From Phycisphaeraceae bacterium (GTDB lineage: Bacteria > Planctomycetota > Phycisphaerae > Phycisphaerales > Phycisphaeraceae), in NCBI GenBank assembly GCA_963674705.1, contig OY771506.1, positions 128,001 to 192,000 of the forward strand: a stretch of DNA of 64,000 nucleotides. Reading direction: 5' to 3'. Below are positions 16,820 through 45,633 of this stretch, piece after piece (the first letter of the stretch is position 1; the number at the start of each line of letters is the position of its first letter). Both the position numbers and the translations under genes were made by a program. Below the pieces are notes generated by a model. That model saw nothing but the letters and a program-made list of their open reading frames with translations. It was not told the origin of the DNA and ran no database searches.

Positions 16820-16883
16820 GACAGAAATGGTGTCAGGGGACAGAAATGGTGGACAGAAATGGTGTCAGGAACCTTTTTCGGTG
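16820..16883. repeat. Repeat B, right copy, with stuttered partial copies; overlaps the transposase stop codon
   Basis: GACAGAAATGGTG occurs three times (16820, 16839, 16852); the transposase TGA lies inside the GGT-N7-ACC hairpin. Confidence 0.9.
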
Positions 16884-17569
16884 ACCTTCTTCGGGCGGCC
16901 TCTGGGTCTGACGGTCGTTTCCAGGCCGTGCTTGCGGATCATGCGGTCGCGCCATGCGCGGGAGCCGTAGGGGCTGCAACGGTTGGCGGCGATGCGCAGG
17001 GCCTCGAGTTCTGCTGAGGTCTGCGGCTGATTCACTAACGCAAGCCAACCCCTCGGCCGTCTCCCGCCCGGTGTGGGCCAAGGGCTTAGCAGGCGTTTCT
17101 GCTCCGCGTTGCCGTGCTTCCAACGCCACAGGCTCGACCACCGCCACGACTCCGCCCGCGCCCTCGGCGACGGCAACCCCGCCCGCTTCGCGTTCCGCTC
17201 CACGTACCGGCATACCGTAGCAAGGTGCGACTCGCCATGGACCAGAAACGATTTATACCGCCCCTGATACACGTGCCCCTCGCCCGTCGTGTGCCGATGG
17301 GCATGCCACCGCTGTGTGTGCGTCAGCGTCAACCAGCCCACAAACTTGGACAGGTCCCCGTCCCGTCTGGGCCTAAGCACCATGTGCCAGTGATTGGGCA
17401 TCAAACAATACGCCAACACCCGCATCGCCGTCCGCTGCACCGCTTGCTCAAGGATCGCCTCGAACGCCTGGTAGTCCCCATCATCGTCAAAGATCGCCAT
17501 CCGGGCATTGCCGCGGTTCAAGACGTGATACACATATCCGCCGACATCAACCCGTGGTGAGCGTCCCAT
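16865..17569 (-). mobile_element. REP-associated tyrosine transposase (RAYT/Y1 HUH) #2
   Basis: YHVLNRGN, YCLMPNHWHMVL (HUH), GHVYQGRYKSF, VCRYVERN (Tyr), WRWSS; hairpin motifs at both ends (16852-16883 and AAGGTCCCTGGAACCTT at ~17609-17625). Confidence 0.88.
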
Positions 17570-26670: not shown

Positions 26671-26695
26671 TTTATAGAATGCATAGGGAACTCGG

Positions 26696-26728
26696 CCCTC
26701 ACCCCGGCCCTCTCCCGAGGGGAGAGGG
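26696..26728. repeat. Third identical copy of the 33-bp palindromic repeat
   Basis: Identical to 20487-20519. Confidence 0.9.
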
Positions 26729-26757
26729 AGTTAAGAAATGCGTTTCGCAGGGATCAT

Positions 26758-28455
26758 ATGTTTAAGAAGTACCAGGTCATGGCGGTAGCAACGGCGGTAA
26801 CACTACTGGCTTCGGCTCATCGGGCCGACGCGGCGGTTCAGGTCTGGCTGACAAAAGGCAATCAGACAAAACTGCTGTCGCAGGAAAGTGATCTGTCTTT
26901 CTCGGCGGGGCCGGGTTCGTATTCGACGAAGGTGAACGTCGATGCTTCGACAACATACCAGACGATGTCGGGCTTCGGCGCGGCGATGACAGATTCGTCG
27001 GCGTGGCTGTTGCAGAACGAGTTGAGCACATCGCAGCGCGACGCGTTGATGGAGCAGTTGTTCTCCCCTACGACGGGGATCGGCATCAGCTACCTGCGTG
27101 TGCCGGTCGGGGCGTCGGACCTGTCGCTGTATCCGTATACCTATAACGATCAATCCTGGGGGCAGACGGATGTGGATCAGTCGGACTTTTCGATCGCGCA
27201 TGATGTGCCTTACATCATCCCGTCGCTGTTGCAGGCGAAGTCGATCAACCCGCAGCTTGGCATGATGGCTTCGCCCTGGAGTGCGCCGGCGTGGATGAAG
27301 ACAAATAACTCGCTGATCGGCGGGTCACTTAAGAGCGAATACTACGAGAGCTACGCGGATTACCTGGTGAAGTTCTTCCAGCGGTATCAGGCACACGGTC
27401 TGAGTTTCGACACGATGACGGTGCAGAACGAACCCTTGCACGGAGGCAATCATCCGTCGATGACGATGAGCACCTATCAGCAGAGCACGTTCATCGGCGA
27501 TCACTTTGGGCCGGCGATGGACGCGGCGGGGATCGACACGAAGATCATCGCGTATGACCATAACTGGGATAACTGGAATTACCCGGTCGTGGTGATGAAC
27601 GACCCCGAAGCGGGGCAGTACGTGAGCGGCGCGGCGTTTCACGGTTACGGCGGGACGGTCGATCAGCAGTCGAACTTCCACGACTTCTTCCCGGATGCGG
27701 GGATTTACTTCTCCGAAATCTCCGGTGGGACCTGGGCGACCAACTTCTCCGACAATTTGATGTGGAACATCGAGAACATCATCATCGGTTCGACGCGCAA
27801 CTGGGCGAAGACGGCGATCTTCTGGAACCTGGCGCTGGATGAAAACAACGGGCCTTACCTTGACGGCGGGTGCAGCGGCTGCCGAGGTGTGGTGACGATC
27901 GATACATCGGACGGCAGCGTTGAGTACAACGAAGAGTATTACAGCATCGCGCATGCGAGTAAGTTCGTACAGCCGGGCGCGGTGCGGATCGATTCGGATA
28001 CGTTTGATAACGTGATCGAGACGGTGGCGTTTATGAACCCGGACGGGTCGCGCGTGTTGATCGCGCTGAACCCGACGAATTCATCGCGCTGGTTTGATGT
28101 GGTTGAAGAAGGCGAATCGTTTTCGTATCGGTTGACTTCTAAGTCGGTGGCGACGTTCGTCTGGCCGGGCGTTGTGCCGGTGGCAGGTGATATTGATGGG
28201 GATGGATTCGTAGGCTTGAGCGATCTGGATATTGTGTTAAGCAACTGGAACCAGAGTGTTCCGCCGGGCGATGCAAGTGCGGATTTGTCAGGCCCGAGCG
28301 GTGACCCGGACGGGTTTGTCGGGCTGGACGATCTGGATGTGGTGCTGGCCAACTGGAACGCCGGCACGCCTGCGGGCGACAGCACGAACATCCCCGAACC
28401 GACGGCGTTTATGTGTATGGGATTGCTTGGCGCTGGGTTGATGCGCCGGGGGTGA
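26758..28455 (+). CDS. GH30 glycoside hydrolase (beta-1,6-glucanase/glucosylceramidase-like) with dockerin-like module and PEP-CTERM
   Basis: Start moved to MFKKYQV; YQTMSGFGAAMTDS, ASPWSAPAWMKTN, TVQNEP (acid/base), YDHNWD, YFSE (nucleophile), HASKFVQPGA; IPEPTA. Confidence 0.9.
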   Translation: MFKKYQVMAVATAVTLLASAHRADAAVQVWLTKGNQTKLLSQESDLSFSAGPGSYSTKVNVDASTTYQTMSGFGAAMTDSSAWLLQNELSTSQRDALMEQLFSPTTGIGISYLRVPVGASDLSLYPYTYNDQSWGQTDVDQSDFSIAHDVPYIIPSLLQAKSINPQLGMMASPWSAPAWMKTNNSLIGGSLKSEYYESYADYLVKFFQRYQAHGLSFDTMTVQNEPLHGGNHPSMTMSTYQQSTFIGDHFGPAMDAAGIDTKIIAYDHNWDNWNYPVVVMNDPEAGQYVSGAAFHGYGGTVDQQSNFHDFFPDAGIYFSEISGGTWATNFSDNLMWNIENIIIGSTRNWAKTAIFWNLALDENNGPYLDGGCSGCRGVVTIDTSDGSVEYNEEYYSIAHASKFVQPGAVRIDSDTFDNVIETVAFMNPDGSRVLIALNPTNSSRWFDVVEEGESFSYRLTSKSVATFVWPGVVPVAGDIDGDGFVGLSDLDIVLSNWNQSVPPGDASADLSGPSGDPDGFVGLDDLDVVLANWNAGTPAGDSTNIPEPTAFMCMGLLGAGLMRRG

Positions 28456-29554: not shown

Positions 29555-31216
29555 AATTCTATCGTCTCTTATGAGTATTGCTCTATAGAATGCTTGCAAG
29601 TGATAACCATGACGGGCCCTTTAGGGCCTATTCATCACGGATTTACGCGGTTTTAATGGTTTTCAGGGCGGTATTTCCCGGGCCGAGGGCGCAAAGATGC
29701 TGTGTCACCGAACACCCGGGCCGTACGGATACCCTCTGCGCTGCCATCATCCACCCACACATGGCATAACCGTGACGGACGGGCGAGCGGTTGTTCTTAA
29801 CTTCTACAACTGAGTTATGTTGAGGCGAGAATCATCGAGCGGCATCCACAGCGTTGCCGGAACCTGCACACCCGACACGAGCACTGACGGCCTCCAACCG
29901 GACGGCTTTCGCCGACAGGGGCAGGCCGTGCTTCTGAAACACGTATGCGCCTCAAGCTATCTATTGAGGTTCAACTGGTATTGCGATTCATGGTTAAGCT
30001 CCTTGTTGCTTGCACTGATCACGTAAGGCGGCGCTATTGACCGCATACGGATAGGCCGTTGCATAGCGAGGCTATGGCGTTGTTCTGATGATCGCGGATC
30101 TGGGTTGAGGTGATCGGCAAGCCGGGCATGCGGCATGCCGGCATTTTGACGGGGCGCAGCCCGGCCCGGCAGGGCTTGCCGGGGTGGATGTGTCTATCGT
30201 TATTAAGAATTACCTTGTGCGCCCGTTGATCGCTTATCCGCAAGCCGCGGGAGCTATTGGCGCTGTGTTGTTTCGCAATCGTCTGAAGTACCGTTTCAAG
30301 TTTCCGGCCGGTCTGAACACAGCCGCCTCCCATCCCTGCCCTGCCCGTCATCCTGACCCCCTGCCGCTTGTGTATGTTCATCCATACTCATGACGCAAGG
30401 GCTTGAGTCTACAACGTATATTCTCGAAATCAATGGTGTAGTTTAATAATTCTTATATTTTTAGATTGGAGTTCTGGCCCGACGGCGGCCGGATGTGCTT
30501 ATACGCATGATATCACGCATGTGCGCGTCATGGAAGGTGTTCTTGTTGAATAAAAAAATAATTGCGTATGCTCCGCCGCGGAACACATGGAACAATACCG
30601 TGGCTGGTACATCGATGACATCGCAAGACTCTTAAACAAACGAAAGCAATGCCTGTTAACACAAAATGCGTACGTCGAAATGTGCCGGACGTCCCACCAA
30701 ACGGGACACATCCGTGGTGGCTTGATTAATCGCGCACGAATACACCCGCTTTTTACCGTGTTTTTTCGGCATTGCCGGGTTCGGCAACAATTCCCAGTTC
30801 TTCCCAACGCACAAACCGACAACTACAACAATGCCGGGAACATCGTTCACGCGATTCATGACAGCGCGTGGCTTTTTCAAAACCGTGCGAGCATGTATCG
30901 TCTCTCTCGGCACAAAACAAACAGCACGACATACGAGGTTGCTGCATATATGCGAAATCATTCCGATCCGGCAGGAAATGCTATTGATCTTCATGCCTGC
31001 GTGTCGTAGCGTGGGTTGTGTTACGCGCGTCGGCCAACAGACGCAATCATATCCAGCGTCGACACGGCAGCGGCGACGGGGGGCGGGGAAGAAAATAAAT
31101 TCCGTTTTAGAATTAACGGTTGATTTCATTCTATATCAGTTTAACATGGGGTCGGCCCGTCGGGCGTCCGACGGGGTGACAGCACAAACCGGCAGAGCCG
31201 GAAAGGAGAGTGGATC

Positions 31217-31396
31217 ATGGTGGCTTGCGTAGAAAGCAAACGGAAGGCGATGGATGCGGTGTTGGCGGAGCGGCGGGAGCGTACCGGGGGAGGTGGGCGA
31301 CTGGTCGCCGACACCGGGCGTGATGTGATCGGGCGGACGCTGTCCAAGGACAGTGAGTCGTTTGTCAGCCATTCGCGTCAAGAGAGTGGAGAGTAG
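31217..31396 (+). CDS. Pup/UBact-like small protein modifier, 59 aa (missed by the ORF track)
   Basis: AAGGAG RBS at 31203-31208; translation MVACVESKRKAMDAVLAERRERTGGGGRLVADTGRDVIGRTLSKDSESFVSHSRQESGE*; the C-terminus resembles Pup (FV..Y.QKGG[QE]); stop is 2 nt before the PafA/Dop-like ATG. Confidence 0.8.
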   Translation: MVACVESKRKAMDAVLAERRERTGGGGRLVADTGRDVIGRTLSKDSESFVSHSRQESGE

Positions 31397-31398
31397 CC

Positions 31399-33963
31399 AT
31401 GCACGGGTGTATGGGGAACGAGACTGAGTACGCGATCGCCCCCATGCCCCAGTCGTTGCCGGCGGATAGCACGCGCGCCGATCGTTCGCGACGGCGACGT
31501 GCAGCCGGCGGCGGCTCGGGTGGGGCCGTTCCATTGTTAGAAGAAGTCATCGAGCAGGTCAGTAGTTCGACACGCGCCCGGCTCAAGGCGGCCACGGGCT
31601 ATGCGGAGCGGTCCGGCTACTTTCTGACCAACGGCTCACGTGCGTATCGTGACGGCGCGCATGTTGAGTACGCCACGCCCGAAGTCACCGACCCGGCTTC
31701 ACTGGTGTGTCACGTGCTCGCCGGCGAGCGGATGGTGCTGGCGGGTTTGTTACAGGCAAAGAAGGTGCATCGCAACTGGCGCGAGGTGAGGCTCTACAAA
31801 ACCAATCAGAGCTACGGTGACCGCCCCGCTTCTTTCGGGTGTCATGAGAATTACAGCTACAGCGTGGATGTGTTTCGGTTATACGATCCGCTTCAGCCGT
31901 TTCTGTGTTCGCGGGTGATCTATACCGGGGCCGGGGGTTACGATGTGAGGCACCCGTTGCGGTTTTCGCTTTCGCCCCGGGTAAGTTTTCTCAGAAGCGC
32001 GGTCGGCGGTGACAGCCGCGCGCTGATTAACGGACGTGATGAAGCATTGGCTGCGCCGCCCTTCCGCCGGTTACACATACTCTGTGGTGAATCCTCGTGC
32101 AGCCACCTGGTGATGTATCTGAAGGTCGGGACCACGGCGATTGTGATCGCGATGGCGGAAGCCGGCATCAATCCGGGCGCGGATGTGATGCCTGTCGACG
32201 TCATGGACGCGATGCGGCGGTTTGTGCTCGACCCGACGTGCACCGTGGCTGTACCCGTGATCGGTGCCGAGAGGTCTGTCACGGCGATCGATATGCAACG
32301 GGCGTATCTCGAAGCGGCGCAGACTCATATCGGCGCGGATTGGATGCCTGCCTGGGCGCCGGGGGTTGTGCAGCGCTGGCGCGAGGTGTTGGAATTGTTG
32401 GCCGAAGGCGCCCCCTACTCGGTATCGACGAAGCTGGACTGGGCGATCAAGTGGTCGCTGCATGAATCGTTCTGCCGAGACAGGGGTTTTACGATCGAGC
32501 AGGTTCAGGAGTGGGACCGTGATATCAGCGAGATCGCGGAGACGTGCGGCGTGGGGCCCGGCGCGCTACAGTCACGGCAAGCCGATGTGTTGGTGAACGA
32601 TCCGCGTGTCATCAGGAAGCTGATCCAGCCGCACCCGCTGTTTGAGCATAACCGGGAGCGTGACAAAAAGTGGGAGCGTCTTGCTGATGCGCTCACGCTG
32701 CGGTCGCAGTTGAACGAGATCGACACGCGATTTGCCGAGATCGGTCCCGATGGCTTGTTTAACCAACTTGATGCGGCGGGCGTGCTGGGGCACCGTTTGC
32801 CGGAGGTAGATGAAGAAAGGATATGTCGAGCGATGGAACAACCACCAGACGATACGCGCGCCCGCATCCGCGCCGAGGCGATCGAGCGGGTCAATCGCAG
32901 CCGAAGGAAGAAACAATACCGAGCGGACTGGCACTGTGTATACATGGCGGATCAGCGCATCCGCCTTGACCTGTCGGAGCTTTGGAATCTATCACCAAGC
33001 TGGCGGCGGTATCCTCGGCGGCGTGATGAACTATCGATGTTTGAAGAGGTCCTGTCGGAACGACCTCCGGGCCCGACGATCGACGAGGTGGTGAATGCGT
33101 ATCAGAGAGCGAGTTTTATGAAAGCCCGTGCATTATCGATGCAGTTGATCGATATGCGGCCGGCGCGAGAGCATGGCAGGCCGTGCTACGCAACTTCGGA
33201 CGTTGGACGGGCGCTGCGTTACCTGGCGTGGGCCACGGCAAGGCTCGGGCTTGGCGATCCGGCCGTTTTGCTCGACAGGATCCACGATCGGGAAAACGAG
33301 CGAACGGACGTGGTCGGCGATTACCTGTTTGTCTACACGGTGATGGCGCTATCGCCGCCGCCGCAGATCGAACGCTGGATCGTGACGGCCAACCTGATGC
33401 ACCTGCGCTTGGGCCGAACGACCATCGATCTTGCCGAACCGTTGGGTTACCACCTGCTTTGCCAAGGCAGGCTTGAAGCAGCGAGGCGGATGCTTGAGCC
33501 TTATGCGGAGAGTACGGAGGTGCTGCGTGGGATGCGTGTGCGGACGAACCTTTTCAGGATTTACCTGCGGATGGGCGATCGCGACAAGGCCGAGCAGATG
33601 CTGCAGCAGATGAACAGCCGAACGGGCAGACGGTACCTGGGACTGATGGCGGAATACCTGCTGCCCTGCAAAGCCAAGCTGACCGAAGATGTCGACCTTC
33701 GCCGCCGACTCTTGCGGCAGGCCTGTCTGATCCACAAGATGCAGAACAACACATTCGGGCAGGTCAAGATCAACCTGCTACGCACCCGCGCGTGCGGCGA
33801 CGTAGGCTTCGCAGATGACCTTCGTCACCAGATCATCCATGACGCGGTCAGCGTGCCGACACTGCATCACTGCAAGAAGTTCGATCGAATCCAGCGCCAC
33901 TGGCGGGCGTGGTCGATGACGGATGAACCGGATGAGCACGGCGACTATTGGTGGGGGCTGTGA
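31399..33963 (+). CDS. Pup-ligase/deamidase (PafA/Dop family) enzyme with a ~320-aa C-terminal helical (TPR-like) extension
   Basis: GNETEY, FLTNGSRAYRDGAHVEYATPE, YKTN...SFGCHENY, PFLCSRVIYTGAG, INGRDEAL, RRLHILCGES, LKVGTT, LDWAIK, PPDDTRARIR. Confidence 0.88.
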   Translation: MHGCMGNETEYAIAPMPQSLPADSTRADRSRRRRAAGGGSGGAVPLLEEVIEQVSSSTRARLKAATGYAERSGYFLTNGSRAYRDGAHVEYATPEVTDPASLVCHVLAGERMVLAGLLQAKKVHRNWREVRLYKTNQSYGDRPASFGCHENYSYSVDVFRLYDPLQPFLCSRVIYTGAGGYDVRHPLRFSLSPRVSFLRSAVGGDSRALINGRDEALAAPPFRRLHILCGESSCSHLVMYLKVGTTAIVIAMAEAGINPGADVMPVDVMDAMRRFVLDPTCTVAVPVIGAERSVTAIDMQRAYLEAAQTHIGADWMPAWAPGVVQRWREVLELLAEGAPYSVSTKLDWAIKWSLHESFCRDRGFTIEQVQEWDRDISEIAETCGVGPGALQSRQADVLVNDPRVIRKLIQPHPLFEHNRERDKKWERLADALTLRSQLNEIDTRFAEIGPDGLFNQLDAAGVLGHRLPEVDEERICRAMEQPPDDTRARIRAEAIERVNRSRRKKQYRADWHCVYMADQRIRLDLSELWNLSPSWRRYPRRRDELSMFEEVLSERPPGPTIDEVVNAYQRASFMKARALSMQLIDMRPAREHGRPCYATSDVGRALRYLAWATARLGLGDPAVLLDRIHDRENERTDVVGDYLFVYTVMALSPPPQIERWIVTANLMHLRLGRTTIDLAEPLGYHLLCQGRLEAARRMLEPYAESTEVLRGMRVRTNLFRIYLRMGDRDKAEQMLQQMNSRTGRRYLGLMAEYLLPCKAKLTEDVDLRRRLLRQACLIHKMQNNTFGQVKINLLRTRACGDVGFADDLRHQIIHDAVSVPTLHHCKKFDRIQRHWRAWSMTDEPDEHGDYWWGL

Positions 33964-34123
33964 TGAATTACGGCTGCGGCATGTTGAGCGCAACTTGTAC
34001 GAATCTACCCGCAACAAAGTGGACGATGCTTCCAAAAGAGAAGCATCGTCCATTCATTTCCCGGTGTTATCTCAGGCGCACGGTCCATGCCAAGTGAATC
34101 CGTCGCGGTGACAAACGCGTCCC

Positions 34124-35254
34124 CTACTCAACTTCGACCTTCAGCGTCACCGTCGGGTGCGTGTTGGGGGCGGTGACGGCGTTTAGGACTTCGAAGGCGA
34201 GGTCTACCGAAGTCTTTCGTTCGATGGTTCTGACATCAAGACGCTTGGTGCTGTGTGGTTCGAGCTTGATTACATCCGCGTCAAGATGGAACGTCATGTC
34301 GGACTGATTTTTAAGCAGATACTCGACGTCCGAGTTGTTTTCGATCGTGACGGTAAGCACTGACAGCTTGCCGGGGTAGTGGGCCTTCTTAATGGCCAGC
34401 GACGCCTTGATGAGCGGCACGAGTTGCTCTTCGCGGCCGATCAGTGTGTTCTTGAACCACACAGCGGTACGGCGTGCCTGGAGGGCTTCCTTGATGCCGT
34501 CGGCGGATCGTTCGGTGGCAAACACCAGCGTGACGGGTCGATGCCCGCCGGCCGGCACGTCGTACTCCCAATCGATGATCCCGTGGATATCTGAATTGCC
34601 CATGATCGCCAGGTTATGGTCGAGGGCGATTTGCAGCGCTTCATCGGAGTAAGACCCGCTGTTGACGACTTCGATGCCTTGGATGAGTTCTTCCCGGATA
34701 AGCTCGCGGTGCATGTCGGTCAGCGTGGCGATGCCGTCGGGGCGTTGAGCCTTCCAGGCGGGATGGTTCCATGTCGTAAAAGCCCCCTGCCGCTTCGCTT
34801 CGCGGAAAACAGCGATGGGATCGTCCATAAGCAGCGGATTGGCGTCTTGAAGAAGGATGGCGTTGCAATGCCCCGGTGGCATATCCCGTGTGACTTCCGA
34901 GCCGTTGAGGATGATCAATGGCTGGTTCTCTGCCTCCTTGACCGCGACCTGATAGGAACGGTTTCTGTCGGGATGCGGGATGTCATCCTTGTGTGGTTGA
35001 TATTCAAGGTGATCGGTCATGGCGATGGCGTCGAGGCCGTCGCGCAGGGCTTCCTGCACACGGATGTTGGGCCAGACGCTGCCGTCCGAAAAGACGGTAT
35101 GCATGTGAAAGTCGCACTTGAGCGTCAGGTAACCCGGCACGTCGGGCAGTTCGATTCGGCGCTGATCCATGTGCGTTTGCTGTGCGTAGGCGAACCAGGG
35201 AAGCAGTAGCGTGAGGGTCAAACCGAGTAGGAGTTTATTCATGCCGGGCCTCAA
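34124..35254 (-). CDS. Secreted PHP-domain metallo-phosphoesterase
   Basis: Signal peptide; DFHMHTVFSDG, AMTDH, GHCNA, WNHP, GNSDIH. Confidence 0.85.
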   Translation of the reverse strand: MRPGMNKLLLGLTLTLLLPWFAYAQQTHMDQRRIELPDVPGYLTLKCDFHMHTVFSDGSVWPNIRVQEALRDGLDAIAMTDHLEYQPHKDDIPHPDRNRSYQVAVKEAENQPLIILNGSEVTRDMPPGHCNAILLQDANPLLMDDPIAVFREAKRQGAFTTWNHPAWKAQRPDGIATLTDMHRELIREELIQGIEVVNSGSYSDEALQIALDHNLAIMGNSDIHGIIDWEYDVPAGGHRPVTLVFATERSADGIKEALQARRTAVWFKNTLIGREEQLVPLIKASLAIKKAHYPGKLSVLTVTIENNSDVEYLLKNQSDMTFHLDADVIKLEPHSTKRLDVRTIERKTSVDLAFEVLNAVTAPNTHPTVTLKVEVE

Positions 35255-45399: not shown

Positions 45400-45545
45400 C
45401 CTCGCGCCGGTGGGCGGGGCATGTCTGATTGGGGGTCCGGAGGATCGCAGACTCGTACACTAGCGGGAAAAGTGTCTGCGTAACTGCGCGCCGAAAATGC
45501 CAGCGTAGTGCTGGCAAGGGTTTACGGCGTTCAGGATGTGAAAAG

Positions 45546-45633
45546 CGGAGAGGGCGGGATTCGAACCCGCGGTAGGGACGAGCCCTACACTGGTTTTCGA
45601 AACCAGCTCCTTCAGCCGCTCGGACACCTCTCC
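45546..45633 (-). tRNA. tRNA-Ser(CGA)
   Basis: Minus strand GGAGAGGTGTCCGAGCGGCTGAAGGAGCTGGTTTCGAAAACCAGTGTAGGGCTCGTCCCTACCGCGGGTTCGAATCCCGCCCTCTCCG: acceptor stem, CGA anticodon, long variable arm, GTTCGAATC T-loop; CCA not encoded. Confidence 0.95.

Follow-up and report, generated by a model that had tools for sequence, protein, structure and literature searches.

The window, meaning the whole 64-kb stretch of DNA that was analysed, harbors on its plus strand a two-gene operon (31217-33963), read in the sequence, in which a gene for a 59-residue peptide is followed by a gene for an 854-residue enzyme. The first of these, referred to here as the tag gene, occupies 31217..31396 (+), stop codon included, and is preceded by the ribosome-binding site AAGGAG (31203..31208, +), likewise read directly, 8 nt before its ATG. 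Translation of the reading frame gives a C-terminal end of ...LSKDSESFVSHSRQESGE, with ...DSESFVSHSRQESGE standing immediately before the stop. The product, ending ...RQESGE, was assigned to the Pup family from the ORF list, conservation and a family profile. The TAG stop codon (31394-31396) is separated by the two nucleotides CC from the ATG of the enzyme gene (31399..33963, +) and, given this 2-nt gap, the two genes are translationally coupled. The enzyme gene, characterized by profile matches, alignment, tree and model, encodes the sole Pup_ligase-family protein of the genome, fused to a TPR domain. Between it and a convergent PHP/DUF5001 gene lies a 14-bp hairpin with a T-run (34020..34052), scored on the minus strand and terminator-like by match to the consensus only. 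The operon span is that of the first-pass annotation, whose description of a 59-residue reading frame with an AAGGAG site stopping 2 nt before an 854-residue protein of the PafA/Dop type is confirmed.

The tag peptide and its kinship with Pup

That the small reading frame is a Pup-like modifier gene, as was originally proposed, has been borne out by its conservation, its family and its profile matches. It is kept at the same place in all three full-length relatives of the locus (L004, L005 and L006), where it either lies 3 nt upstream of the enzyme gene or overlaps it. Comparison with L004 reveals 8 synonymous codon changes and 5 non-synonymous ones; the latter are confined to codons 10-33, and codons 34-59 carry 4 synonymous changes and no others. 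The frame is more than a chance one, because it recurs at this position in the three relatives and its codons 34-59 have changed only synonymously, a pattern that indicates a conserved gene under purifying selection. Codons 30-59 (31304..31393, +) constitute the conserved half, predicted from family conservation, a co-fold and the codon changes against L004 to form an enzyme-binding helix and tail.

The tag family encompasses 60 distinct small ORFs with the motif ..AAGDxAIxRALSGDSExFLxAxRQxGG[QE]. Its alignment (A5) shows no variation at Q55 and G58 and very little at I38, L42, S46 and F49; the ending Q-x-x-G-[EQ], proposed in the first-pass annotation as a test for short ORFs upstream of homologous enzymes, appears as RQxGG[QE] in the family motif. 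The three best PDB matches of the A5 profile are all Pup chains (7px9_G, E 0.0058; 3m9d_G, 0.012; 3m91_B, 0.019), with alignments that reach the last residue, and comparison with four actinobacterial Pups by hhalign gives a probability of 91.3% (E 9.5e-7), the 28 aligned columns extending to both C-termini. Together, these profile comparisons establish homology between the tag family and Pup. The peptide itself has no match to the Pfam (PF05639) or NCBIfam (TIGR03687) Pup models at E up to 1; within the family PF05639 matches weakly in 4 of 44 members (best E 0.0069) and TIGR03687 in one of 44 (E 0.011). Pup is delimited, in Iyer 2008 (PMC2588565), as a small protein of 50-90 residues with a C-terminal G-[EQ]. 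The tag, at 59 residues and with the end ...SGE, is of this kind, and adjacency to a PafA/Dop-family gene is found here, in L004-L006 and in dozens of loci.

A PafA/Dop-family enzyme with a fused TPR domain

Residues 1-515 of the enzyme (31399..32943, +) form a catalytic module of the glutamine-synthetase-fold PafA/Dop type, delimited by a Pup_ligase match in two stretches and by Foldseek. The Pfam Pup_ligase model (PF03136) matches residues 5-407 with E 2.2e-81, plus the second stretch. The motifs G6/E8/E10 (GxExE), Y83-x-D85, E90 and H149-E-N151 are invariant or nearly so in 36 long-form homologues, as are R194, E215, R224, H226 and E231, so that the GxExE, catalytic Asp, HxN and Arg motifs of a PafA domain are all present. 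Two inserts interrupt the module, one of low complexity (residues ~15-45) and one that is helical and hydrophilic (~365-430). Its best Foldseek matches are Dop (7oxy_A, E 3.2e-24, TMt 0.80) and PafA (4bjr_A, E 8.7e-20, TMt 0.71). The motif set of a carboxylate-amine ligase is thus retained, the fold is shared with Dop and PafA, and the earlier assignment of the enzyme to their family stands.

Assignment to one or the other of these two enzymes is less direct. The protein falls below the equivalog cut-offs of both PafA (TIGR03686, 193.5 bits against 551.3) and Dop (TIGR03688, 198.6 against 492.3), the two scores being level, and it scores higher against the solved chain of Dop (161.7 bits) than against that of PafA (86.3 bits). 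At the position of the Dop-loop, a ~40-residue insertion after the first strand, it has ~20 extra low-complexity residues (pLDDT 46-52), as judged against distant long forms in alignment A3. Planctomycete single enzymes are reported to align in part with the Dop-loop (Hecht 2020). Sequence is compatible with either a ligase or a hydrolase, because solved Dop is the nearer relative, Foldseek ranks Dop first and extra residues are found at the Dop-loop.

The closest relatives of the enzyme share 94% (L004), 44% (L005) and 51% (L006) identity with it, and in a tree of 90 rows the four form a 100* clade. Two-paralog systems occur in metagenomes and in some Phycisphaeraceae, with the order (JAB) - Mpa-like ATPase - A paralog - tag - B paralog - (AAA_lid_9 ATPase), where B paralogs are those downstream of the tag; we know of no name for these systems. 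The four-locus clade is nested in a 100* clade of 26 rows that contains all B paralogs, separate from a 100* clade of A paralogs; deep nodes are weak (support 30). B paralogs and distant long forms score higher against PafA than against Dop, whereas A paralogs show the reverse. The tree therefore places the enzyme within a clade of tag-adjacent paralogs whose other members lean to PafA, a lean that, unlike its B-clade kin, the enzyme's own level scores do not show. The two-paralog systems share with the window the tag family, the B clade of enzymes and the position of the B enzyme, always directly downstream of the tag, and some B members (L103, L152, L159, L094 and L147) carry the same TPR domain. 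They differ in possessing a Dop-leaning A paralog, where the window has a single enzyme. Among 18 such loci a Mpa-like ATPase is found in 11 and a JAB protein in 8, and no PF00227 match, that is, no 20S gene, is found in the flanks (~4 kb) of any. The window's form has lost, or never had, the A paralog, the Mpa-like ATPase and the JAB protein.

The terminal residue of the tag tracks enzyme number. Where an A paralog is present, Gln is the more frequent last residue (20 Q, 9 E); in single-enzyme Phycisphaeraceae loci all four end in Glu, as do all 13 tags detected among 22 single-enzyme membrane-type planctomycete loci. Since the tag here ends in Glu59 and the genome contains no Dop-like second paralog, a deamidase is neither needed nor present, in agreement with the original claim. 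It is also the reason for regarding the enzyme as a probable ligase rather than a hydrolase, because a Glu-ended tag with a single enzyme only makes sense with ligation.

A mainly Dop-like hydrolase, or a decaying remnant of a Mpa-like ATPase/A/tag/B system in which conjugation has been lost, is very unlikely. Such a reading would suit the nearness to solved Dop in both sequence and fold, the same-family relatives G470 and G502, which keep the two-paralog form with a GGQ tag, and the Mpa-like ATPase that adjoins so many two-paralog loci and is absent from the window's genome. It is countered by the intact catalytic motifs, by 92 synonymous against 50 non-synonymous codon changes between the enzyme gene and that of L004, with no amino-acid change in the conserved half of the tag, and by the PafA lean of the clade mates. 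A hydrolase facing a Glu-ended tag in a genome with no ligase would, moreover, be without a substrate, and the two-gene form persists across lineages whose enzymes are only 44-53% identical, which implies long-term maintenance.

The distinctive feature of the enzyme, overlooked in the first-pass annotation, is a TPR-like solenoid of ~300 of its 854 residues. This all-helical domain (residues 561-840; 33079..33918, +) was delimited from a TPR_19 match, models and a fold search. The TPR_19 match covers residues 689-752 (E 9.5e-6, 26.3 bits against a cut-off of 25), and the models have pLDDT values of 86.9 for the whole enzyme and 92.9 for the domain alone. TPR proteins head the fold search, as expected of a helical-repeat solenoid of the TPR superfamily: the best VIA-align match is APPBP2 (8jal_A, Z 21.1, rmsd 3.8, 278 aligned), followed by TPR subunits of the APC/C and by NprR/Rap/AimR. 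The modeled fold thus resembles peptide-binding TPR receptors. The domain occurs in only 135 representative proteins of 1.84 billion, and is almost confined to the C-terminal end of PafA/Dop-family enzymes of this kind. Because of this fold and strict fusion, the domain may select targets by peptide or protein binding; it is the fold alone that suggests the role, and helical repeats easily score high in fold searches. Beyond the solenoid lies the conserved extreme C-terminus PDEHGDYWWGL (residues 844-854; 33928..33960, +). In alignments A3 and A6 it follows the pattern PDE.GD.[FW]WG[LV], D849 and W852 vary little or not at all, and conservation extends to W835 and W838.

Co-folding of tag and enzyme, proposed at the outset as a check, gives an ipSAE of 0.82 (median of three runs) against 0.00 for the best of three controls. 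Among solved complexes 116 of 157 attain the mark that the pair attained, and among mismatched pairs 2 of 215 do so. The prediction may owe its score to the PafA-Pup and Dop-Pup complexes that have already been solved, and it shows likeness rather than binding by this copy. At least 92% of contacts agree between runs, and the partner pLDDT is at least 76. Tag residues 29-35, 37-38, 40-43 and 45-59 touch the enzyme in the model, with residues 45-59 meeting enzyme residues 10-17 and 85-88, including the GxExE strand and D85. The tail of the tag is hence predicted to sit at the active site.

Genomic setting and relation to known systems

The genome is one closed contig of 5,539,117 bases (5.54 Mb), 96.63% complete, with one Pup_ligase gene, whose two profile matches are stretches of a single ORF. 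It contains no 20S subunit PrcA or PrcB: HslV alone matches PF00227 (231.9 bits, cut-off 157.75), and the 20S beta model reaches 24.2 bits against 191.9. For the Mpa/ARC ATPase the best pup_AAA score in the genome is 141.5 bits against a cut-off of 504.75, and the proteasomal-ATPase OB domain (Prot_ATP_ID_OB_C) has no match. The first-pass annotation had noted that the 64-kb window has no proteasome, no ARC/Mpa and no second paralog, and had suggested a genome-wide search for prcAB, arc and dop. Both the window and the whole closed genome proved to be without them, and the stand-alone reading therefore holds genome-wide. A canonical Pup-proteasome system with its partners dispersed elsewhere in the genome, which the first-pass annotation had named as a refuting outcome and in favor of which nothing was found, is, within the sensitivity of the HMM searches, excluded for practical purposes.

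Of 144 genomes of the family, 6 contain the module, and of 10 further genomes of the genus only 1 does; a Pup_ligase of any kind occurs in 43 of 401 genomes of the phylum. Being missing from most close relatives, the module must be dispensable. Of the earlier view that the module sits in accessory DNA beside a tRNA islet, the accessory part is consistent with this patchy distribution. The tRNA islet was not confirmed: the one tRNA of the window found by ARAGORN and Rfam, a tRNA-Ser (45545-45633), lies 11.6 kb downstream, and no compositional anomaly was found at the module.

A patchy spread of this sort would also befit a conflict system, directed against phages or mobile elements, in which the chemistry would be unchanged, the TPR domain would respond to invader proteins or to a stress cue, and tagging would either disable those proteins or act as a signal. 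Conflict-type genes do flank two of the three relatives, L005 (a RelA_SpoT+SLOG+RyR protein and a NUDIX protein) and L006 (a DUF4062-NACHT-TPR protein and a RelA_SpoT protein), a Mrr_cat nuclease lies ~5 kb from L004, and the TPR domain is similar in fold to AimR, Rap and NprR, which are peptide sensors of phages and bacteria. Nevertheless, this reading, of which an anti-phage role had been an early version, seems unlikely. PADLOC models match neither of the two proteins nor two of the neighbors, no relative was found in viral contigs and none of this form on plasmids, and literature searches on pupylation combined with phage defense yielded no such system. The neighbors in the window either serve sugar use (glycoside hydrolases and sialidase-like proteins) or are regulators of the LacI/LysR/AraC types, and the RelA_SpoT neighbors are not conserved, with no RelA_SpoT match anywhere in the window's genome.

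Another idea is that of a narrow acceptor, whereby the tag is joined to a single partner, the enzyme itself or a small amine, and serves as dedicated substrate or regulator of one pathway. A specific-looking receptor domain of such rarity fits few clients, and there is no reader such as Mpa to lend the tag a general meaning. We nonetheless judge it improbable: the four loci share no conserved flank gene that could act as the single partner, the Pup-like half of the tag that binds the ligase is complete and the G-E end is retained, and small-molecule ligase families, according to Iyer 2008 (PMC2588565), have no Pup-like small ORFs nearby.

Among described systems, the actinobacterial Pup-proteasome system (Pup, PafA, Dop, Mpa/ARC and PrcAB) likewise has a modifier that is small and disordered, forms a helix in its C-terminal half and ends in G-[EQ], and whose gene adjoins that of a glutamine-synthetase-fold PafA/Dop-family enzyme, and the predicted binding mode, tail in active site, is the same. 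Here, however, there is one enzyme in place of a ligase/depupylase pair, there is no Mpa/ARC or 20S, the tag ends QESGE rather than QKGG[QE], and the enzyme, which scores under the equivalog cut-offs of PafA and Dop alike, branches in a separate clade and is fused to a TPR domain. Corynebacterium glutamicum also carries out Pup tagging without 20S subunits, as is predicted here. It keeps, according to the review PMC8223512, Dop and an ARC unfoldase that acts on ferritin, whereas the window's genome has neither.

Closer in phylogeny are the proteasome-unlinked systems of planctomycetes and Plesiocystis, with Pup and a single membrane-inserted ligase, outlined in Iyer, Burroughs and Aravind 2008 (PMC2588565) and, for planctomycetes, also in Hecht 2020. 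The likeness lies in the phylum, a tag with a single ligase away from proteasome genes, and Glu-ended tags. Assignment of the window's enzyme to this type, with its insert after core strand 4, was rejected: its KD19 maximum is 1.56, below the 1.6 threshold for a 19-residue window, as against 1.96-3.13 for the hydrophobic insert in all eight planctomycete single-type enzymes checked, and the two fall in separate 100* clades. The membrane-type systems also have tags ending ...PGGGE and no TPR domain. Small ORFs ending ...YRQRSGE, which we take to be those termed 'UBact' (Lehmann et al. 2017), lie between two paralogs in Bipolaricaulota, Fraserbacteria and others. In these non-actinobacteria, too, PafA/Dop-family genes are accompanied by a short gene for a tag, but their enzymes belong to other clades and the tag follows the Dop-leaning paralog; the window's tag was rejected as a member of this type (hhalign of A5 against A9, probability 0.7%). 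Systems of this general kind have thus been predicted in planctomycetes since 2008, the already-published type being membrane-inserted, whereas the soluble, TPR-fused form without an unfoldase appears to be undescribed.

Proposed mechanism and significance

The operon probably encodes a Pup-family tag and a sole PafA/Dop-family enzyme that ligates Glu59 to lysines of targets chosen by the TPR domain, with no proteasome involved. In this scheme the enzyme would bind the conserved C-terminal half of the tag, as modeled, and would likely activate Glu59 with ATP, after which the activated tag would be ligated onto lysines of target proteins picked by the fused C-terminal solenoid. The fate of tagged proteins might then be non-degradative or non-proteasomal, for instance through regulation or transfer to some other machine, and the same enzyme could possibly remove the tag. 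A stronger version is put forward only tentatively: one polypeptide may be a complete writer that activates and ligates the tag, picks its target through a TPR receptor and perhaps erases the mark, providing a signal with no unfoldase or proteasome in the cell. In shape, the TPR receptor of such a writer would recall the receptors by which eukaryotic E3 ligases recognize degrons.

Pupylation has been studied almost only as an actinobacterial degradation signal that needs two enzymes, an unfoldase and usually a proteasome, and to our knowledge PafA has no receptor domain. In the closed genome studied here a tag and a single enzyme survive on their own, the pair is maintained across divergent lineages, and the enzyme has acquired a receptor-like domain of its own. 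A wider unnamed family has also been mapped around the same tag, with two paralogs, a Mpa-like ATPase and a JAB protein. If conjugation is shown, the locus would offer a soluble tagging system of two genes that is easy to transplant, a natural experiment on how target choice can be built into a Pup ligase, and an occasion to ask what meaning a Pup-type tag has when no reader is known. The one-polypeptide writer, if true, would be the smallest complete protein-tagging system known, and would open a window on the role of pupylation before it was coupled to degradation.

The tag gene and its family

An AAGGAG ribosome-binding site (31203-31208, forward strand) precedes an open reading frame (ORF) of 59 codons (ATG at 31217, TAG at 31394-31396, forward strand). 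The encoded peptide, here called the tag, ends ...LSKDSESFVSHSRQESGE, and two bases 3' of its stop codon starts the 854-codon ORF of the PafA/Dop-family enzyme (ATG at 31399, end at 33963, forward strand). This two-gene layout reads in the sequence as the first-pass annotation had claimed. The tag alone has no match in Pfam, NCBIfam or PADLOC. The nearest relatives of the enzyme among genome contigs come from three Phycisphaeraceae MAGs, with 94% (locus L004), 51% (L006) and 44% (L005) identity, and in all three a small ORF lies upstream of the enzyme gene, its stop being either 3 nt before the enzyme start or overlapping it. These ORFs end ...LSKDSESFVSHSRQESGE in L004, ...LSKDSEAFVESSRQHDGE in L006 and ...LSGDSERYLHQARQQQGE in L005. 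Between the window and L004 the tag gene differs at 14 of 177 bases, with 8 silent and 5 residue-changing codons; the latter all fall within codons 10-33, and codons 34-59 contain 4 silent and no replacement changes. By this comparison the tag is under purifying selection.

A wider survey used distant long forms (enzymes with a TPR domain) to scan metagenomes, together with a script run over 173 loci. Of the 228 Pup_ligase-like ORFs of at least 300 aa in these loci, 120 are accompanied on the same strand by a small ORF that ends in G[EQ] and lies no more than 500 nt away, in a few cases plainly by chance. Sixty distinct small ORFs have in common the motif ..AAGDxAIxRALSGDSExFLxAxRQxGG[QE]. In an alignment of this family (44 rows, window numbering) Q55 and G58 are invariant, and I38, L42, S46 and F49 nearly so. 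When its profile was compared with all PDB chains the three best matches were Pup (E 0.0058, 0.012 and 0.019), aligned through the last residue, and hhalign against four actinobacterial Pups drawn from loci of this survey gave 91.3% (E 9.5e-7) over 28 columns finishing at both C-termini. The same alignment shows no likeness (hhalign probability 0.7%) to the ...YRQRSGE tags of Bipolaricaulota-type loci, which we take to be UBact. Being kept in relatives, under purifying selection, a member of a 60-strong family and similar to Pup, the small ORF is on sequence grounds judged to be a real gene, and the hidden 59-aa modifier of the first-pass annotation is upheld as Pup-like.

Most tags in the family alignment share an N-terminal M-x-x-RER in addition to the C-terminal half. 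The window tag has RRER at residues 19-22, so that its true start may be different or its N-terminus may have been remodelled.

A PafA/Dop-type enzyme with a TPR domain

The enzyme matches Pfam Pup_ligase (E 2.2e-81) over residues 5-407, with a second stretch near 435-514, and falls far under the cut-offs of both NCBIfam equivalogs (Dop, 198.6 of 492.3 bits; PafA, 193.5 of 551.3 bits). The carboxylate-amine ligase motifs enumerated in the relevant passages of Iyer 2008 (PMC2588565) are all present and are conserved across 36 long-form homologues: GxExE, Y83-x-D85, E90, H149-E-N151, R194, E215, R224, H226 and E231. With the AlphaFold model (pLDDT 86.9, pTM 0.65) as query, Foldseek returned Dop first (7oxy_A, E 3.2e-24, TMt 0.80) and PafA second (4bjr_A, E 8.7e-20, TMt 0.71), and sequence comparison with solved chains gave 161.7 bits for Dop and 86.3 for PafA. 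Around 20 extra low-complexity residues are found at the site of the Dop loop. A similar ambivalence between PafA and Dop is described in parts of Hecht 2020 for planctomycete single-copy homologues, which have 29-31% identity to both enzymes and a partial Dop-loop alignment. Relative to L004, the enzyme gene has 92 silent and 50 replacement codon changes.

Some relatives carry two paralogs, a Dop-leaning one 5' of the tag (A) and a PafA-leaning one directly 3' of it (B). In a tree of 90 rows and 455 columns (IQ-TREE quick search, SH-aLRT support only), the window enzyme and those of L004, L005 and L006 form a clade (support 100) nested within a second clade of 26 rows (support 100) that holds every B paralog and the other long forms. 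The A paralogs make up a separate clade and the planctomycete single enzymes a third (both 100), while actinobacterial Dop and PafA fall into one group (89) and the paralog pair of the ...YRQRSGE loci into another (92); with support of 30 at the deep nodes, no rooting is claimed. On the NCBIfam models A paralogs score higher for Dop than for PafA (for example, 282.7 vs 213.6). PafA is the better-scoring model for B paralogs and distant long forms (234 vs 218 and 240 vs 210), and it aligns from its position 2. By its place in the B clade the window enzyme, the own Dop and PafA scores of which are level, is an orthologue of the PafA-leaning, tag-adjacent paralog.

The co-folding of peptide and enzyme proposed in the first-pass annotation was carried out with enzyme residues 1-545 and the tag, supplied with an enzyme and the tag-family alignment (A1 and A5), and scored 0.82 (median of 3 runs) vs 0.00 for the best of 3 controls, a mark reached by 116 of 157 solved complexes and 2 of 215 mismatched pairs. 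Contact agreement between runs was at least 92% and partner pLDDT at least 76. In the predicted complex tag residues 30-38 lie against enzyme helices 350-358 and 441-463, and tag residues 45-59 extend to the GxExE strand and to D85, contained in enzyme segments 10-17 and 85-88. As PafA-Pup and Dop-Pup complexes have been solved, the pass may reflect those known structures, and it is read as a likeness of the pair to solved complexes rather than as proof that the window copy binds.

The C-terminal part of the enzyme, which was absent from the first-pass annotation, is a TPR fusion and is the most distinctive feature of the system. Pfam TPR_19 matches residues 689-752, residues 561-840 are modelled as an all-helical repeat, and residues 554-854 folded alone reach pLDDT 92.9 and pTM 0.91. 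With this segment Foldseek found generic TPR proteins only, none at E 0.001 or better. A VIA-align fold search of 48,161 chains placed APPBP2, the CRL2 receptor for the RxxGP degron, at the top (8jal_A: Z 21.1, rmsd 3.8, 278 aligned), followed by the APC/C subunit 4ui9_O (Z 18.7), more APC/C TPR subunits and TSK (Z 16.6), and further down the peptide sensors NprR (Z 15.6), Rap and AimR. Because helical repeats readily reach Z of about 14, the modelled domain is taken as a peptide- or protein-binding TPR solenoid, with no finer assignment.

Among 1.84 billion representatives, 135 proteins match the TPR domain at E of 0.001 or less, 55 of them at 1e-10. Seventy of the 135 are at least 700 aa long, and in nearly all of these the match runs to the protein end; the shorter proteins could be either fragments or copies of the domain that stand alone. 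The end of the enzyme, PDE.GD.[FW]WG[LV], reads PDEHGDYWWGL here (33928-33960, forward strand) and is conserved across long forms whose identity over the rest of this domain is only about 25%. Such a conserved aromatic tail could dock on a partner or fold back on the domain.

Genomic setting and two-paralog relatives

The genome of the window is closed (one contig of 5,539,117 bases, 96.63% complete) and contains a single Pup_ligase gene. Its one PF00227 match is HslV (231.9 bits vs 157.75); the bacterial 20S beta model reaches 24.2 bits vs a cut-off of 191.9, the pup_AAA model at best 141.5 vs 504.75, and no proteasomal-ATPase OB domain is present in the whole genome. The genome-wide search for prcAB, arc and dop suggested at first pass thus gave nothing above cut-off, and the stand-alone, proteasome-free status seen in the window extends to the entire genome. 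L004, L005 and L006 likewise have one enzyme each within the 6 kb seen per side.

Locus searches were run with two narrow enzyme alignments (A2 and A4), two others (A1 and A3) being too diverse. Most enzymes recovered from metagenomes with A4 were short forms, with long forms only at L103, L152 and L159 (whole) and at L094 and L147 (cut); L159 has no G[EQ]-ending tag by the survey criteria. In other loci the tag family of the window is placed between the two paralogs. A Pfam scan of 18 such metagenome loci, with flanks of about 4 kb, found an Mpa-like ATPase (AAA plus Prot_ATP_ID_OB) in 11, a JAB protein in 8, an AAA_lid_9 ATPase in 6 and PF00227 (20S) in none. The recurrent set consists of JAB, an Mpa-like AAA ATPase with proteasomal OB domains, the Dop-leaning paralog, the tag (...RQxGGQ), the PafA-leaning paralog and a small AAA_lid_9 ATPase, and occurs at L118, L122, L125, L105, L099, L166, L168, L172, L100, L111, L153 and others. 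It apparently has no name in the literature, where nothing was found on JAB/Mpa-like two-paralog systems.

Where an A paralog is present, 20 tags end in Q and 9 in E. All four tags at the single-enzyme Phycisphaeraceae loci end in E, bearing out the claim that the tag needs no conversion to Glu. Of 22 planctomycete loci with a single enzyme of the hydrophobic-insert type, 13 yielded a tag, in every case ending in E, and the other 9 none by the criteria used. The terminal residue tracks enzyme number, a pattern rather than a statistical test since the loci are related to one another.

Upstream of the module lie genes for a PEP-CTERM protein, a GH30 enzyme and a LysR regulator, and downstream those for a PHP/DUF5001 protein, a DUF6298 protein, BNR sialidase-like proteins and an aldolase; the remaining window genes concern sugar use, regulators, an IS200-type transposase, FeoB and trigger factor. 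The IS200-like Y1 transposase (Y1_Tnp, E 1.5e-17; 16868-17569, reverse strand) is about 14 kb upstream of the module. Module GC (0.59-0.62 vs 0.55-0.63 in the flanks) shows no anomaly. The tRNA islet said to lie beside the module was an error: ARAGORN found no tRNA in 20000-45000 and one in the whole window, a tRNA-Ser at 45545-45633 that is also the sole Rfam match at gathering scores, 11.6 kb from the module. Nor did the anti-phage idea gain support, with no PADLOC match for the tag, the enzyme and two neighbours, no relative among 35 pattern matches in viral contigs, and nothing found in the literature on Pup-type systems in phage defence. Plasmids gave actinobacterial PafA/Dop-like matches only, covering 34% of the query. 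Pup_ligase of any type occurs in 43 of 401 sampled Planctomycetota genomes and in 6 of 144 genomes of the family: the present one, G494 (1 of 10 other genomes of the genus), G407 (with the same protein as L006), G470 and G502 (two-paralog forms with GGQ tags) and G525 (a fragment).

Several further observations concern the flanks. Between the LysR gene and the tag (29600-31216) are 1.6 kb without a convincing ORF or Rfam match and of lower GC (0.48-0.55), 90.8% identical to the L004 counterpart, a divergence about that of the surrounding coding DNA; this may be a regulatory region or a long leader, or else what remains of a gene. A promoter scan of 30600-34300 found 0 sigma-70-like sites vs a shuffle mean of 1.4, which is uninformative for this phylum. 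About 40 bases at the 5' end of the GH30 gene (26692-26738) recur at 87-100% identity in many places in genomes of the same family (G409, G401, G427, G172, G424, G412 and G418), and 8 diverged copies (69-75% identity) of a segment at about 28186-28370 lie within the genome itself; both probably belong to shared modules that code for signal or anchor domains. Upstream synteny is common to the window and L004. A 320-aa radical-SAM gene (L004 8652-9611) lies between the enzyme and PHP/DUF5001 genes of L004, where the window has 160 bases. The scan of relatives' flanks covered 55 of 66 ORFs and then 5 more, the 6 left out being short or antisense to enzyme genes (L004, L005, L159, L094). Conflict-type genes flank L005 (8674-11680: an 869-aa RelA_SpoT+SLOG+RyR protein and a NUDIX protein) and L006 (8572-14534 and 12-5531: a 1504-aa DUF4062-NACHT-TPR protein and a RelA_SpoT protein, besides a TPR protein of 853 aa and one of 639 aa that matches nothing in Pfam). 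RelA_SpoT as a conserved partner was ruled out by the lack of any PF04607 match in the closed genome; this family is matched in 11 of 14 control genomes.

Putative ligation and relation to known systems

The favoured mechanism would have the GS-fold module bind the helical half of the tag and phosphorylate the gamma-carboxylate of Glu59 with ATP, a step that is established PafA chemistry in the account of it within Hecht 2020. The TPR solenoid would hold the target protein, a lysine of which would then attack the activated carboxylate, leaving an isopeptide-linked tag. The case for ligation is an argument of logic: with a Glu-ended tag, a single intact enzyme under purifying selection and PafA-leaning clade mates, it is the sole role that would give the pair a purpose. 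As there is no Mpa-type reader, the effect of putative tagging would most likely be regulatory or steric, or depend on recognition by another machine. PafA itself has depupylase activity. Removal of the tag by the same enzyme is conceivable from its Dop-like traits.

Partial precedents exist. Passages of Iyer, Burroughs and Aravind 2008 (PMC2588565) describe Pup with a single Pup ligase and no proteasome linkage in Rhodopirellula and Plesiocystis, the ligases having four inserted transmembrane segments and a linked membrane protein, and sections of Hecht 2020 report PafA/Dop homologues in single copy in planctomycetes. In Corynebacterium, according to portions of PMC8223512, pupylation works without a 20S proteasome but with ARC and Dop. 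PupE and PafA together are known to modify proteins of E. coli (Cerda-Maira 2011, cited in Hecht 2020). In contrast to the membrane-type planctomycete enzymes, that of the window is soluble (KD19 maximum 1.56 vs 1.96-3.13 in 8 of 8), and compared with planctomycete single enzymes it belongs to another clade and its tag to another subfamily. Unlike all of these systems as portrayed in the passages concerned, it carries a TPR receptor-like domain and has no unfoldase. The literature searched contained no account of a TPR-fused Pup ligase, although supplementary lists in Iyer 2008 and Hecht 2020 could include one, and none of PafA/Dop in Acidobacteria. The first-pass interpretation of a stand-alone pair, with a Glu-ended tag and no proteasome, was largely right. 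Even as tempered by the 2008 precedent, a system of two genes that can be put to the test, and that has its putative receptor built in, is of moderate to high interest for the pupylation field.
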